This document shows positions 28,651-62,170 of a stretch of DNA of 64,000 bases, piece after piece; the stretch's first letter is position 1, and each line of letters begins with the position of its first letter. Below the pieces are notes generated by a model, which searched no databases, was not told where the DNA came from, and saw nothing but the letters and a program-made list of their open reading frames with translations. The stretch comes from Chitinophagales bacterium (GTDB taxonomy: Bacteria > Bacteroidota > Bacteroidia > Chitinophagales > CAIOSU01). A program made the translations under genes and the position numbers. The DNA is taken from contig JAWXCB010000008.1 in assembly GCA_034440455.1 (NCBI GenBank), positions 66,442 through 130,441 on the forward strand. Reading direction: 5' to 3'.

Positions 28651-28659
28651 GAAGCGCAG

Positions 28660-28732
28660 GTCACAGTGAGCGAAGTCGAACTGTAGCAGCGCGGGCAATC
28701 GCTCAATCCTTCGACTTCGCTCAGGATGACAA
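28660..28732. repeat. inverted pair of class-2 hairpin repeats (core TGAGCGAAGTCGAA)
   Basis: 28660-28686 is GTCACAGTGAGCGAAGTCGAACTGTAG. The reverse complement of 28706-28732 is TTGTCATCCTGAGCGAAGTCGAAGGAT. The GAGCGAAGTCGAA cores (28668-28680 / 28710-28722) are perfectly complementary. Confidence 0.8.
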
Positions 28733-30965: not shown

Positions 30966-31226
30966 TCAGAGGTTCACATTTTTCCTGTCACCGATTTTGC
31001 GAACCTCAATAACTTTCACAGAATCCTCAATGCTATAGATGACGCGATAATTTCCAACACGAATCCGCCAGAGGTATTCTTTCTCGCCTTTTAATTTTTT
31101 ACAACCGACAGGACACGGGTTATCGGATAAGTCGCTGATAGCCGCGCTGATTTTACGGGTTTCATTTGCAGGCAATCGCTCCAATTCTTTCAGCGCCTGC
31201 TTGCTAATGCGGATAGCATAGCTCAT
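30966..31226 (-). CDS. RelE/ParE-family type II toxin
   Basis: 86-aa core (LWRIRVGNYRVIYSIEDSVKVIEVRKIGDRKNV). The ATG at 31226 overlaps the upstream antitoxin stop as ATGA. Confidence 0.8.
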   Translation of the reverse strand: MSYAIRISKQALKELERLPANETRKISAAISDLSDNPCPVGCKKLKGEKEYLWRIRVGNYRVIYSIEDSVKVIEVRKIGDRKNVNL

Positions 31227-31417
31227 AATTTGCCTTTTTTCTTCAGGCGTTTTTTTGCTTCTTCCCAACTGAGCATCTCGTCTCCTTTCCGCGATTCTGC
31301 AACAAGCACATCAATGAATTCGTGAATTTCCTCTTCATTTTTTTGAATCGCATCCAAAGCAATTACAACTGCTTTTTTCTTGTTGTTCTCGTCAGTGATG
31401 TAAGAAATGCCCTTCAT
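31223..31417 (-). CDS. putative antitoxin partner of the RelE/ParE toxin
   Basis: 64-aa ORF with a 4-nt overlap onto the toxin start. No family recognised. Confidence 0.55.
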   Translation of the reverse strand: MKGISYITDENNKKKAVVIALDAIQKNEEEIHEFIDVLVAESRKGDEMLSWEEAKKRLKKKGKL

Positions 31418-31451: not shown

Positions 31452-33107
31452 TCACTTGAACATCACCACAGCATGATACTCCTGCATGAATTCAGCATGG
31501 TTGCGTTGCTTCTGCTCTTCATTCCATCCGAACAACACTCCTGCTTTTTCTTTCAGGAATTGATATTCCTGCTCCACCACTTCGCGCTCGAAATAAAGTT
31601 TGCCGGTGCGCCTGATAAAAAAATCACTGAGGTTGGTTACGGCTTCTTCCGCAATGCAATAATCTAATTCTGCAAGTAGCAATGCTTTATTGCTAAATCC
31701 GGTTGGCTGTTCTTTCACAGCTTTGATAATTTTTTCACAAGCCGTTCCGTAGCGGTGAATCAAATTGAAAATATCTTTCGTGGTGATGTCGGAAGGCTGC
31801 GTCATTTTTTCTATTTTCTCGGCAAAGCCCGCAATGGAATATTCATCTTTAAAATCACCGCCACCAAGAATGATTTTATCAGTGAAGCAGCGCTTGAACT
31901 CAAGACCTTCATCGCTGGCAATCTGGTAAGCAGCAGTATCCACCGCGCGTTCCGCCATTTTACGAAAACCGGTGAGCTTGCCGCCCGCCATAGAAATTAG
32001 TCCCGAAGGAGAAATAAAAATTTCATCCTTGCGTGAAAGCTCCGAAGGGTCTTTGCCTTCTTCATGAATCAGCGGACGCAAGCCCGCCCATGAAGAGGTA
32101 ATATCTTTTTTCGTGAGTTCTACGGTGGGAAACATCGAGTTCACGGCAGCAAGCAGATACGCAACATCTTCTTTTGCCGTGACGGGATTTTCAATGTCGC
32201 CATCGTAGTTGGTGTCGGTAGTGCCGATGTAGGTAATCTCTCCGCGCGGTATCACAAAAATCATTCTGCCGTCAGCGACATCGAAATACGCTGACTGTCG
32301 CACGGGCAATTTTTCATAAGGCACCACAAGATGCACACCTTTGGTGAGATGCAGAGTTTTTCCTTTCAGCGAATTGTCTTTTCTGCGCAACGCATCCACC
32401 CACGGACCGGCAGCATTAATCACCTTCTTCGCGCGAATACTGAATTTCTTTTTGTTGATAATATCTGTGACATCCGCTCCCGAAACTTTTCCTTCAGCAT
32501 ATAACAGGTCATCCACTTCTGTATAGTTAATACAGCGCGCACCATAGTGCGCAGCGGTTTTCAGTACTTCCAGCACAAGCCGCGCATCATCCGTTCGATA
32601 CTCTTTATAGATAGCTCCGCCTTTTATATTGTCACTCCTGAGCAGCGGTTCTTTTTTAAGCGTAGCATATTTTGAAAGCATGTCCTTCCACTCGCTGAAA
32701 CGCACGCCCGCAAGCCAGTCATACACCGACAAGCCGATGGCGGTACTCGTTCTGCCGAGAGAGCCATTTTCGACAATGGGCAACAGCATGTTTTCAGAAA
32801 CAACAACGTGTGGCGCGTTGCGATGCAGGATAGCGCGCTCGCGTCCCACTTCTTTTACCAATGCAATTTCAAATTGCTTGAGGTAGCGCAACCCGCCATG
32901 AATCAGCTTGGTGGATTTACTGCTCGTGCCGGAAGCGAAATCTTTTTTCTCCACAAGCGCGACTTTCATGCCGCGTGAAGCCGCATCCAGCGCAATGCCT
33001 GCGCCCGTGATGCCGCCCCCGATAACGAGCAGGTCGAAGCCCTGCTTGCTGAGTTGCTCAATGGTAGAATCGCGTTGAAAAGTGGAAAGAATCTGTTTGT
33101 TTACCAC
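31452..33107 (-). CDS. glpD: FAD-dependent glycerol-3-phosphate dehydrogenase
   Basis: FDLLVIGGGITGAGIALDAASRGMKVALVEKKDFASGTSSKSTKLIHGGLRY is the GlpD N-terminus. Start placed at the GTG at 33107, because the longer ORF to 33254 overlaps the GIY-YIG gene and a repeat element. Confidence 0.9.
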   Translation of the reverse strand: MVNKQILSTFQRDSTIEQLSKQGFDLLVIGGGITGAGIALDAASRGMKVALVEKKDFASGTSSKSTKLIHGGLRYLKQFEIALVKEVGRERAILHRNAPHVVVSENMLLPIVENGSLGRTSTAIGLSVYDWLAGVRFSEWKDMLSKYATLKKEPLLRSDNIKGGAIYKEYRTDDARLVLEVLKTAAHYGARCINYTEVDDLLYAEGKVSGADVTDIINKKKFSIRAKKVINAAGPWVDALRRKDNSLKGKTLHLTKGVHLVVPYEKLPVRQSAYFDVADGRMIFVIPRGEITYIGTTDTNYDGDIENPVTAKEDVAYLLAAVNSMFPTVELTKKDITSSWAGLRPLIHEEGKDPSELSRKDEIFISPSGLISMAGGKLTGFRKMAERAVDTAAYQIASDEGLEFKRCFTDKIILGGGDFKDEYSIAGFAEKIEKMTQPSDITTKDIFNLIHRYGTACEKIIKAVKEQPTGFSNKALLLAELDYCIAEEAVTNLSDFFIRRTGKLYFEREVVEQEYQFLKEKAGVLFGWNEEQKQRNHAEFMQEYHAVVMFK

Positions 33108-33109
33108 AA

Positions 33110-33502
33110 TTAAAATTGGTTTCGATGCTCTGTATTTGTCATGGTGAGCGAAGTCGAACCATGTCTTTTTGAGGAAGCGTTTATTTTGTTTTTTGAATAA
33201 TACTTGTGGGATGTAAAATTCTTGCAGACTGCCAATTCTTTTAATCTCGACCAATTCCGCTGAATCAACGCTTCTTTCTTTTTTCTTGTCCAGCCTTTGA
33301 TTTGTTTTTCTAATTCAATTGCTTCGTTCGGATTATTCAGCATTTCACAAAAAACCAATTCAACAGGTCTTCGATGATAGATGTAGGCGTTTTCATCTTC
33401 ACCGGAATTATGTTCGGCAAGTCTTCTTTCAATATCATTTGTTACTCCAGTATAGTAACTCTGGTCGGCACATTTTACGATATAGACATACATCACTTTC
33501 AT
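33110..33502 (-). CDS. small GIY-YIG nuclease-family protein (UPF0213/COG2827-like)
   Basis: The N-terminus YVYIVKCADQSYYTGVTNDIERRLAEHN carries the GIY...YTG motif, and IKGWTRKKKEALI is typical. The C-terminal 30 codons read through a hairpin repeat, so the true end is uncertain. Confidence 0.8.
   Translation of the reverse strand: MKVMYVYIVKCADQSYYTGVTNDIERRLAEHNSGEDENAYIYHRRPVELVFCEMLNNPNEAIELEKQIKGWTRKKKEALIQRNWSRLKELAVCKNFTSHKYYSKNKINASSKRHGSTSLTMTNTEHRNQF
33136..33163 (+). repeat. class-2 hairpin repeat TTGTCATGGTGAGCGAAGTCGAACCATG
   Basis: Stem CATGG/CCATG around the core TGAGCGAAGTCGAA. Inverted partner at 33526-33553. Confidence 0.85.
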
Positions 33503-33525
33503 AAAAAAGTATTACTTCTTGCGGA

Positions 33526-33553
33526 CAGCCTTCGACTTCGCTCAGGCTGACAA
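33526..33553 (-). repeat. class-2 hairpin repeat (reverse complement TTGTCAGCCTGAGCGAAGTCGAAGGCTG)
   Basis: Same TTGTCA head and 14-nt core as 33136-33163, with compensatory stem changes (CAGCC/GGCTG). Confidence 0.85.
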
Positions 33554-33625
33554 AAAACTGATTGCAAATTCAGAACGTATAATTGTAAGATTGAGATAAG
33601 TGAAGTTTCGAGCGCAAAAGTAATT

Positions 33626-34648
33626 CTACCACTTCACAATCACCTTCCCTACTGACTTTCTTGATTCTAAAAACTCATGCGCTTCGGCAAGTTGATTGGT
33701 GGTGTACACTGCTCCGGTGTGTGGTTTTACTATTCCTTGTCCGTGCAGCTTCACCACGTTTTGCAGGCAGCGTTGCAGAATATCCTGTTTATCATCCGCA
33801 ATGCGCAGCATGTTAATGCCGATGAGCGCTTTGGTTTGCATGATAAGCACAGGTGGAAACAGCAAACCGAAACCCCACGCGAGTTTGAGATTTGCAAGCA
33901 GTTTGTTGCTTTCATCCATCGCTTCGGCTGCGCCATAGCACACTAACCTTCCGCCCGTTCCCAATAGCGCGAGACCATCACGCATTGTTTTTCCCCCGAT
34001 AGAATTAAAGATTACATCCGGTCTTTTCCCGTTCATGATTTTTTTCACAGCCTGATGCAAATCTTCTTTACGGTAATTAATCGGGTAATCTACTCCAAGT
34101 TTTCGCAGGTAATCCAATTTTTCATCTGAGCCTGCTCCGCCATAAATAATACACTTCCTGTTTTTGGCAAGTTGGATTAATGCAGTTCCCACACCACCCG
34201 CTGCGGCTTGTATCACAACATGGTCGCCTTCATTCAGGCGCACCATCTCTTCGGCTGCATAATAAGCAGTACAATATTGCGTGGCAAGCGCGGCTGCTTC
34301 GCCTGCTTCCATATTTTCGGAAATCGGCACAACGCCTTTCGCATCTGATGCAACTTGTGTGGCATATCCGCCAAAGCGCGTGAACGCAACCACACGCTGT
34401 CCGATTTGCAGATGCGTTACATTGCTTCCAAGTTTTGAAATATTACCGACAGCATCATAGCCGATTACGCAGGGAAGTGGCGGGCAATCCTGGTATTTGC
34501 CGGTGCGCGCAACCACGTCTGCGAAGTTCAGTCCGAATGCTTCCACATCAACCACCACTTCATGCGGCTTAGGTTGCAGGTCGGGAAATTCTTTCAGCGC
34601 AAAGGCTTCTTTGGCGGAACCAAAGCGGGTAAGTTGGAATGCTTTCAT
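33626..34648 (-). CDS. zinc-type alcohol dehydrogenase-like / NADPH:quinone oxidoreductase (MDR superfamily)
   Basis: 340 aa with a GroES-like N-terminal domain and Rossmann motif AAAGGVGTALIQLAK. Confidence 0.8.
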   Translation of the reverse strand: MKAFQLTRFGSAKEAFALKEFPDLQPKPHEVVVDVEAFGLNFADVVARTGKYQDCPPLPCVIGYDAVGNISKLGSNVTHLQIGQRVVAFTRFGGYATQVASDAKGVVPISENMEAGEAAALATQYCTAYYAAEEMVRLNEGDHVVIQAAAGGVGTALIQLAKNRKCIIYGGAGSDEKLDYLRKLGVDYPINYRKEDLHQAVKKIMNGKRPDVIFNSIGGKTMRDGLALLGTGGRLVCYGAAEAMDESNKLLANLKLAWGFGLLFPPVLIMQTKALIGINMLRIADDKQDILQRCLQNVVKLHGQGIVKPHTGAVYTTNQLAEAHEFLESRKSVGKVIVKW

Positions 34649-48974: not shown

Positions 48975-49000
48975 TTGTCATACCGCACTTGTTGCGGCAT
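48975..49000 (+). repeat. TTGTCAT-headed hairpin repeat (TTGTCATACCGC-acttgtt-GCGGCAT)
   Basis: Shares the TTGTCAT head with the class-2 elements but has a different stem-loop. Lies in the pheS / pterin dehydratase divergent gap. Confidence 0.6.
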
Positions 49001-49060
49001 CCCCTGATTAAATTATTTGCGGATGGTGGAACGAGTCCGCCATGACATTAAACAAATATT

Positions 49061-53890: not shown

Positions 53891-53899
53891 GTTTAACCC

Positions 53900-54009
53900 G
53901 TCATTGCGAGCCAGGAACGAGCGAAGCAATCCCACGATGATAGAATGATTTTGGGATTGCTTCGGAAAATAGCAAGGGCTGAAGCAAATGGGCTTTCCCT
54001 CGCAATGAC
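53900..54009. repeat. 110-bp compound palindrome built from GTCATTGCGAG-type hairpin repeats
   Basis: Outer arms GTCATTGCGAG (53900-53910) / CTCGCAATGAC (53999-54009). Inner arms CGAAGCAATCCC (53922-53933) / GGGATTGCTTCG (53953-53964). Confidence 0.8.
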
Positions 54010-54023
54010 GCTGAAGATAAATC

Positions 54024-62139: not shown

Positions 62140-62170
62140 TTGTCATGCTGGACTCGTTCCGGCATGACAA
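62140..62170. repeat. TTGTCAT-headed palindromic repeat (TTGTCATGC-N13-GCATGACAA)
   Basis: 9-bp perfect arms read directly, between the nucleotidyltransferase start and the creD stop. Confidence 0.7.

Follow-up and report, generated by a model that had tools for sequence, protein, structure and literature searches.

A small GIY-YIG nuclease gene in a 64,000-nt stretch of contig JAWXCB010000008.1 from a Chitinophagales bacterium (contig positions 66,442 to 130,441; hereafter the window, with coordinates counted from its first letter) lies in the spacer of an outward-headed doublet of hairpin repeats, and the association of this gene with this repeat is tight, oriented, and clade-specific. The repeat family has a base-paired stem, inheritance of the gene is vertical and purifying selection maintains it, and the repeats, both near the gene and between other genes, are gained, lost, and amplified. 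Considering these observations together, we favor, with some reserve, the reading that the repeats are a family resembling the repetitive extragenic palindromic (REP) sequences and bacterial interspersed mosaic elements (BIMEs), whose partner is a Slx1-like GIY-YIG nuclease from the UPF0213 family, cognate to the repeats and passed on vertically, in a role analogous to that of RAYTs, the tyrosine transposases associated with REPs. A role of this kind had been proposed in an earlier reading of the letters of the window (the sequence-only reading). The bracketing of the gene by inverted copies turns out to be a rule and the repeats match the subclades of the protein, but the mobile cassette that was part of the proposal does not hold up, and the action of the nuclease on the hairpins would be by analogy.

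The order of features, in gene orientation, is a Zn-dependent alcohol dehydrogenase (ADH)-family gene, a head-first element, 23 nt, the GIY-YIG gene, an inverted element, and glpD. The GIY-YIG open reading frame (ORF) occupies 33110–33502 of the minus strand and encodes 130 aa; the copy at 33526–33553 is therefore the upstream one and that at 33136–33163 the downstream one, a distinction missing from the strand-blind layout given earlier. The two 28-nt sequences themselves had been given correctly to the letter: read directly from the window, 33136–33163 on the plus strand is TTGTCATGGTGAGCGAAGTCGAACCATG, and the reverse complement of 33526–33553 is TTGTCAGCCTGAGCGAAGTCGAAGGCTG. An inverted-repeat search returns both copies as a 31-nt inverted pair, 81% complementary, with 358 nt between the arms. 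Both heads point outward, the downstream copy being inverted relative to the upstream copy and falling within the annotated GIY-YIG ORF. This inverted pair, together with a Pfam match for the protein (below), bears out the claim that inverted copies enclose a small GIY-YIG ORF. The cassette had also been said to end 3 nt before the glpD start; it does adjoin glpD, but the gap is that between the GIY-YIG stop codon and the likely GTG start of glpD, which lies 2 nt further on.

The 14-mer TGAGCGAAGTCGAA has four perfect copies in the window (28667 and 33145 on the plus strand, 28710 and 33531 on the minus strand), as compared with ~5e-4 expected by our own calculation in 128 kb, counting both strands. 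A 21-nt pattern that includes the head, GTCA-N3-TGAGC-N3-GTCGAA, has 4 exact matches in the window; with up to 3 mismatches it has 7 versus 1.6 expected, a number that 0 of 100 shuffles reach. There are no convincing degenerate copies of the headed pattern in the window, and 14-mer matches with 3 mismatches occur there at chance level. A Pfam scan finds no transposase domain in the unit. The unit had been described as lacking a RAYT, and indeed none is found in the window by tblastn with an approximate E. coli RAYT sequence as the query, which is a weak test.

The same arrangement recurs widely. A protein-profile scan taking one genome per species yielded 80 loci across Bacteroidota plus one Ignavibacteriae, with 86 genes (the window has one) in a total of 1.29 Mb of sequence. 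With TGAGC-N3-4-TCGAA as the strict motif, 127 matches lie within 100 bp of a GIY-YIG gene, 111 at 101–300 bp, 51 at 301–1000 bp, and 43 beyond 1 kb; the motif is ~80-fold denser within 300 bp of the gene (238 matches) than beyond 1 kb (43 in 1.11 Mb). A head-first copy is present within 250 bp upstream of 63 of the 80 genes, often ending 6–20 nt before the start codon, and an inverted copy is present downstream of 56; 47 genes have both and 6 have neither. The six are variants, having TCGG or TGAGGCTCTCGAA in the core or apical loops of increased size. Special flanking by inverted elements, which the sequence-only reading had put forward as a question, is thus a family-wide rule and not a local accident. 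The approximate RAYT query, again a weak test, gives one marginal tblastn match in the 80 loci (E 0.009), at L046 7783–8178; the match is 20% identical across 133 aa and lies upstream of the GIY-YIG gene by ~1.8 kb.

The element consists of a TGTCA head, three variable bases, the core TGAGC-N3-4-TCGAA, and the complement of the variable bases. Among 324 copies the head is 97–99% conserved and the three variable positions are paired in 96%, 97%, and 89%. Pairs 2 and 3 each take three or four Watson–Crick types, and pair 1 is C:G in ~86%. All three variable pairs are formed in 85% of 277 distinct elements versus 16% after shuffling, where 1000 rounds gave at most 25%; sliding the partner by 1–3 columns leaves 9–53% paired per pair in the same 277. 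The compensatory stem changes noted earlier therefore reflect a variable, covarying stem. The 5-bp stem assigned on that occasion does not extend to the family, however, which has just three variable pairs; the CA/TG extension of the window copies is paired in just 49% and 27% of family copies. The loop variants (GGAG, 101; TTG, 75; CTG, 61; GAAG, 27; GTAG, 11; GCAG, 11) belong to two classes, G-N-A-G and Y-T-G. Inverted copies that adjoin each other have different stem triplets in 79 of 80 pairs, which argues that each copy folds on itself and that two subtypes alternate as in BIMEs, and which makes a long doublet hairpin unlikely as the selected structure. We suspect that the stem extends through a T:A pair, tandem sheared G.A/A.G pairs (TGAG/CGAA), and a G:C pair to a C-GNA-G mini-loop, a suggestion that comes from the invariance of TGAG...CGAA, the four G-N-A-G variants, and the enlarged apical loops of some genomes. 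Four loci with enlarged loops (L067, L073, L089, and L059) keep GTCA-NNN-TGAG...TCGAA-N'N'N' with 15–25 extra apical-loop bases, some of them self-complementary, less than 200 bp from the gene; such variants are consistent with a hairpin that has a recognized base and a freely varying tip.

The protein is a small UPF0213/COG2827 GIY-YIG nuclease, presumably catalytic, and the sequence-only identification of this family is supported by profile comparisons. Pfam PF01541 (GIY-YIG) matches residues 4–76 (E 3.7e-19), and a profile of 40 homologues matches Protein Data Bank (PDB) entries 1ZG2 (BH0048; E 3.8e-19) and 1YWL (EF2693; E 1.8e-15). Foldseek on the AlphaFold2 (AF2) model returns 1ZG2 and 1YWL (UPF0213) as top folds, followed by Slx1, and the protein is 33% identical to E. 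coli YhbQ. Residues Y7, Y16/17, R27, H31, and E65 are invariant among 40 aligned homologues; we take the Tyr of GIY, the Tyr of YIG, the Arg, and the Glu to be catalytic from knowledge of the superfamily. Comparison of homologues gives a stand-alone protein with a conserved length of ~100 aa, and a clade marked by a KGW(S/T)RxKK motif and two extra C-terminal helices that bear clade-specific motifs. Neither the Pfam scan nor the AF2 model reveals a DNA-binding or strand-transfer domain outside this ~100-aa core. A phage or defense origin was rejected, there being no PHROG or NCBIfam match (PADLOC was not searched). The predicted local distance difference test score is >90 for residues 1–90, <60 from residue ~100, and <50 from residue ~110. 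The final ~30 codons (..HGSTSLTMT..) come from translating the hairpin downstream; they are modeled with low confidence and vary between orthologues, which end at different places with this tail altered or absent. Since 42 of the 120 best homologues have tails that are translated element in various reading frames (FDSAQGD, STPLTMT, LRLRSG), the tail is read-through and not a domain.

The type of loop follows the C-terminal class of the protein. Proteins with a C-x-N C-terminal helix (AVCKN here) are flanked by G-N-A-G loops at 38 loci versus 0, and those ending in LSKN or LSKT by Y-T-G loops at 27 versus 5, the five exceptions including truncated ORFs such as that of L092; the association has a Fisher p of 1e-14, uncorrected for phylogeny. 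The two clades are found side by side in the same genera, and Epilithonimonas mollis (L071, L092) has both in a single genome, so the pairing follows the protein rather than the host. Copies more than 1 kb away match the local loop type in 24 of 29 cases. The earlier suggestion that the repeat family is tied to the GIY-YIG gene is thereby strengthened, as the repeat variant matches the protein subclade.

That each paralogue has a loop type of its own would not be expected if the Slx1-like nuclease were a guardian of the host, which removes or resolves repeat hairpins or cruciforms while another agent spreads the repeats and their pile-up by the gene is unrelated, for example at a tolerated site. 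Nor would this explanation lead one to expect a doublet of fixed orientation around the gene in 47–63 of 80 genomes. It does accord with the closest folds being Slx1 and UPF0213, with the annotation of the E. coli member as "DNA damage response nuclease YhbQ", and with vertical inheritance under strong purifying selection, as for a host function. However, the E. coli and Bacillus family members lack such repeats, and no other mobilizing enzyme is seen near the elements, the weak tblastn test with the approximate RAYT query giving the one marginal match. We regard a guardian function of this kind as quite unlikely.

The gene at glpD is old. The exact protein is on 17 contigs, in a single context throughout, and its nearest homologues (79–88% identity over the whole ORF) likewise lie between ADH and glpD. 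Among four genomes the 96-aa core is 83–93% identical, versus 71–88% amino acid identity for glpD, and the ratio of nonsynonymous to synonymous divergence (dN/dS) at this locus is 0.02–0.05 while dS exceeds 1. Many of the 80 loci form groups that have both flanks in common across genera. The sequence-only reading had the cassette inserted into the upstream region of glpD; a recent insertion there is rejected on synteny, saturated dS, and low dN/dS, and the locus is an old resident copy of the system, not a fresh insertion. Filled and empty sites upstream of glpD had been anticipated as well, and in all relatives found the site is occupied or holds a decayed remnant. A glpD-based metagenome scan for an empty site yielded two close relatives only (L094 and L095; glpD ~80% identical), both with a decayed GIY-YIG gene in which a shared internal deletion fuses 27 N-terminal codons to the C-terminal end (L094 380–690, L095 200–340). 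A fixed, syntenic arrangement had been named beforehand as a point against the whole proposal. Syntenic it is, although the number of elements varies; this argues against a mobile cassette and not against a RAYT-like role, because RAYTs are also vertically inherited.

Of the rival explanations, the one that fits the data on synteny and selection least well is that of an autonomous selfish cassette, either a free-standing homing-endonuclease gene or a transposon with hairpin terminal inverted repeats that entered upstream of glpD, gene-less doublets being its empty targets or miniatures. The gene does sit exactly in the spacer of a doublet, gene-less doublets share that architecture, and decay is evident, both as remnants at the same site (L094, L095) and in the ~6–8% of gene copies that are truncated or frameshifted (L015, L054, L082, L092, L042); several paralogues per genome (L067, L093, L071/L092) would suit a cassette too. 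Yet the same locus is filled in relatives with saturated dS, the gene is better conserved than glpD, the locus groups share both flanks across genera, the 17 exact-protein contigs show one context, and the gene-less doublets stay unfilled. No direct repeat adjoins the heads at 33136/33553 or 28657/28732, so that no target-site duplication is evident, and the protein has no DNA-binding or strand-transfer domain beyond its core. We consider a selfish cassette highly improbable.

The elements turn over at the sites where the gene persists. The orthologous site holds two elements in the window and in L011, three in L012, and five in L009, with stems that differ by compensatory changes. In Flavobacterium the number of copies per locus ranges from 1 to 6, with "> 14 nt <" doublets (> and < denoting elements in opposite orientation) in tandem arrays at some loci, and element arrays are also found in L023, L056, and L085. 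One of the two relatives with the decayed gene keeps three hairpins; the other, L095, has lost all, through loss of a 150-bp segment holding two hairpins and loss of the upstream copy. Similarly, a Sphingomonas paeninsulae pseudogene between rnc and era (L184 600–975) has an in-frame stop and no flanking elements, and is syntenic with an intact, element-flanked copy in Sphingomonas sp. HMP6 (L185). The cases of L095 and L184 suggest that the presence of the elements depends on an intact gene.

Copies of the element also occur away from the gene. Thirty-three headed copies lie more than 1 kb from any GIY-YIG gene in 1.11 Mb, where our own calculation expects ~0.02. About half of these dispersed copies are paired, many follow a stop codon directly, and 30 of the 33 are outside long ORFs, though long ORFs cover 87% of the sequence. 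In 395 kb of virus-derived contigs there are 54 copies, none of them close to a GIY-YIG gene. The two further copies reported earlier as an inverted pair at 28660–28732 are indeed such a pair, a gene-less doublet spanning 28657–28732 in the paaC–paaD spacer, arranged tail to tail with heads out and ~20 nt between; 31 pairs from other genomes have the same "> ~20 nt <" layout. Folded as single-stranded DNA, the window doublet gives a long hairpin of -19 kcal/mol (z = -5). The paaC–paaD spacer of a relative (L175/L176 1414–1500) is without the doublet, but it is unrelated over its entire length, so that the comparison yields no boundaries; it contains an unrelated palindrome, caatgtgccaat ... 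attggcacattg.

Dispersed copies just after stop codons in spacers recall mRNA-stabilizing REPs, and the doublet's strong long hairpin, together with an upstream copy at 6–20 nt from the start codon, a good position for translational or transcriptional control, could point to cis-acting RNA or DNA signals. On that explanation the hairpins are 3'-end stabilizers, terminators, or autoregulatory operators, the protein regulates through them or does not bind them, and dispersal is the work of another enzyme or of chance recombination. The loop and head sequences are, however, conserved across two phyla, far beyond what a terminator or stabilizer needs, and the differing stems of neighbors weaken the case for the long hairpin. 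An intrinsic terminator was rejected, as the terminator scan skips the hairpins, no T-run follows them, the stems are made of 3–5 variable bp, and the loop has a conserved sequence. A known RNA family was rejected for want of an Rfam match: Rfam 15 gives no gathering-score match in the window or in five loci, and nothing relevant at E<=10 in 33000–33700. Moreover, pure autoregulation leaves the copies in phage-derived contigs or far from GIY-YIG genes unexplained. We hold an explanation by cis signals to be unlikely.

The repeat and its nuclease had been presented as a Bacteroidota family, but they are not confined there, as three Sphingomonadales loci carry the same core by homologous genes. 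In Sphingomonas parapaucimobilis (L179 459–903), nrdR is followed by < >, the GIY-YIG gene, and <, with a core identical to TGAGCGAAGTCGAA and the head GTTCA/GTTCG. Sphingomonas sp. HMP6 (L185 9900–10380; gene between rnc and era) has the order < > GIY-YIG < > with Y-T-G cores (TGAGC-YTG-TCGAA), as does Altererythrobacter (L186 9822–10380), and in both loci no other copy lies within ±10 kb. Element-derived tails or N-terminal extensions (LRLRSGRT, PSTSSGRT, VRAEPVEG) are found in 59 of 120 alphaproteobacterial homologues, where loop type again goes with C-terminal class: LRLRS accompanies AAIP in 24 of 25, and PSTSSG accompanies LARN in 27 versus 4. No repeats flank E. coli yhbQ or the yazA of Bacillus type, both of which are packed in operons, and extension of the system to these genes was rejected on that ground. 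We advance tentatively, at a little short of an even chance, the proposal that this is a second, independent nuclease–repeat partnership, in which a UPF0213/Slx1-like clade of at least Bacteroidota and Alphaproteobacteria is the enzyme dedicated to recognizing and cutting its own TGAGC...TCGAA hairpins, and in this way to maintaining and spreading them, with paralogues in one genome serving different loop variants.

In a REP-like repeat family with a cognate GIY-YIG nuclease, the protein would recognize the folded hairpin, its C-terminal helices reading the apical loop, and would cut in the hairpin or close to it. Copies might then be duplicated or removed by the repair or replication machinery of the host, so that the nuclease would maintain and disperse the repeat population, as RAYTs do for REP doublets forming hairpins (REPINs). 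The analogy is apt because bracketing and the match of repeat variant to enzyme subclade are hallmarks of REP/RAYT pairs. Several points weigh against this picture. Binding and cutting of the hairpins are predictions. GIY-YIG enzymes hydrolyze DNA and form no covalent intermediate of the kind that enables HUH/RAYT enzymes to cut and rejoin; dispersal would therefore need host functions, none of which we can name. Slippage or unequal recombination could produce the tandem arrays by the gene with no nuclease involved. Single hairpins are weak, at -2 to -5 kcal/mol with z from 0 to -2 by nearest-neighbor DNA energies, and the dispersed density is low, with one doublet in the 64-kb window and ~1 per 30 kb elsewhere, far below classical REPs. 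An all-versus-all flank search of 160 loci shows arrays that are polymorphic in length, but it turned up no clean pair of filled and empty sites for a single copy, and the loci compared show no target-site duplication. Finally, the association statistics take no account of phylogeny, although orthologous loci are numerous among the 80.

Table 1. Positions and structure of the hairpin elements and the GIY-YIG gene in the window
Feature	Position	Strand	Description
Left element of gene-less doublet, paaC–paaD spacer	28657..28684	+	AGGTCA-CAG-TGAGCGAAGTCGAA-CTG-TA
Right element of gene-less doublet	28705..28732	-	head-first on minus strand: TTGTCA-TCC-TGAGCGAAGTCGAA-GGA-TT
Nonconserved C-terminal ORF tail	33110..33202	-	read-through into and beyond downstream hairpin
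Downstream hairpin element	33136..33163	+	head-first on plus strand: TTGTCA-TGG-TGAGCGAAGTCGAA-CCA-TG
GIY-YIG conserved core, residues 1–100	33203..33502	-	UPF0213/COG2827; C-terminal C-x-N motif (AVCKN)
Upstream hairpin element	33526..33553	-	head-first on gene strand: TTGTCA-GCC-TGAGCGAAGTCGAA-GGC-TG; ends 23 nt before GIY-YIG ATG

Other TTGTCAT-headed hairpins in the window, which the sequence-only reading had listed with these copies, exist at 48975–49050, 53899–54011, and 62140–62170, but they belong to separate repeat families and were rejected as members, their cores being different and not enriched near GIY-YIG genes. The first and third have the loop GGACTCGTTCC and a TGTCATG head in common and make up a third repeat family, seen in this window alone among all the loci fetched. 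The one at 53899–54011 is a ~110-bp element that has GTCATTGCGAG in inverted orientation at its two ends and lies just upstream of a dnaJ-like start; six other Bacteroidota loci have the GTCATTGCGAG terminus, in every case at a distance from the GIY-YIG gene, and it marks a separate dispersed family. Further along the glpD locus, between glpD and a DUF374 gene, the minus strand encodes a RelB-like (31223–31417) and ParE-toxin-like (~30966–31226) pair. In the relatives L011 and L012 glpD directly abuts DUF374, so this toxin–antitoxin pair is an insertion or deletion polymorphism.

To our knowledge, REP/REPIN-RAYT systems are the only well-studied case of a long-persisting population of short repeats with a single-copy, vertically inherited enzyme gene. 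If our reading is right, such partnerships arose more than once, here on an unrelated nuclease fold without cut-and-rejoin chemistry, which raises the matter of how a purely hydrolytic nuclease could propagate repeats, and a large family of "GIY-YIG nuclease family proteins" would gain a function. The results give small GIY-YIG proteins a testable candidate substrate, with a defined head, a free 3-bp stem, and a conserved core, and they supply a built-in specificity contrast between the C-x-N clade with G-N-A-G loops and the LSKN clade with Y-T-G loops. They also explain why annotated genomes of Bacteroidota and Sphingomonadales show variable C-terminal tails and small ORFs that are spurious, and would account for the origin of the repeat family that yields the spurious peptides FDSAQGD, LRLRSGRT, PSTSSGRT, and VRAEPVEG. 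We found no description linking GIY-YIG genes with REP-like, MITE-like (miniature inverted-repeat transposable element), or hairpin repeats in bacteria in the literature covered, from which subscription journals were mostly absent; an earlier description is possible.

The protein shares its GIY-YIG core with UPF0213/COG2827 members (YhbQ, YazA, BH0048, EF2693) and with eukaryotic Slx1, a structure-specific nuclease that acts with Slx4 on branched DNA; it differs from YhbQ and YazA in the KGW(S/T)RxKK motif, the two extra C-terminal helices, and the flanking hairpins. As with free-standing GIY-YIG homing endonucleases (T4 Seg, I-TevI), a nuclease gene lies between copies of its possible target. 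Unlike them, it has no separate DNA-binding domain, its inheritance is syntenic over the long term instead of following cycles of invasion and decay, and the candidate target is a multicopy hairpin repeat and not a unique gene sequence. Recognition hairpins and short gene-less derivatives between genes recall IS200/IS605 and miniature inverted-repeat elements such as Correia, whereas here there is no known transposase class, no target-site duplication is seen, and the end hairpins are on opposite strands. Two repeat types alternating in opposite orientation with characteristic spacers, sometimes in tandem arrays, are shared with the BIMEs of enterobacteria, from which the present elements differ in sequence and in having no known IHF or gyrase sites; a flanked nuclease gene is not a BIME feature.

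The closest parallel is with REP/REPIN-RAYT systems ("REPtrons"). On background that includes PMC3116915, PMC5581495, and 10.1101/2022.05.22.493013, these comprise extragenic hairpins with a conserved head, covarying stems, and inverted doublets, together with a bracketed enzyme gene that is low in copy number, vertically inherited, under purifying selection, and paired with a clade-specific repeat variant. REP heads fall into GTAG and CGTC classes (PMC3733652), and that paper makes no mention of a TGAGC...TCGAA repeat. The present family differs in its enzyme, a hydrolytic GIY-YIG nuclease that cannot cut and rejoin alone instead of an HUH Y1 (IS200/IS605-like) transposase, in its TGTCA head (GTTCA/GTTCG in Sphingomonadales) in place of GTAG or CGTC, in a dispersed density that appears much lower, and in its Bacteroidota and Sphingomonadales hosts. 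Because an HUH enzyme and a GTAG/CGTC head are wanting, we class it as a system that works like REP/RAYT and not as a member. The likeness extends to an enzyme gene bracketed by inverted copies, the doublet as unit, covarying stems, intergenic dispersal, a low-copy, vertically inherited gene under purifying selection, and a repeat variant for each enzyme clade.

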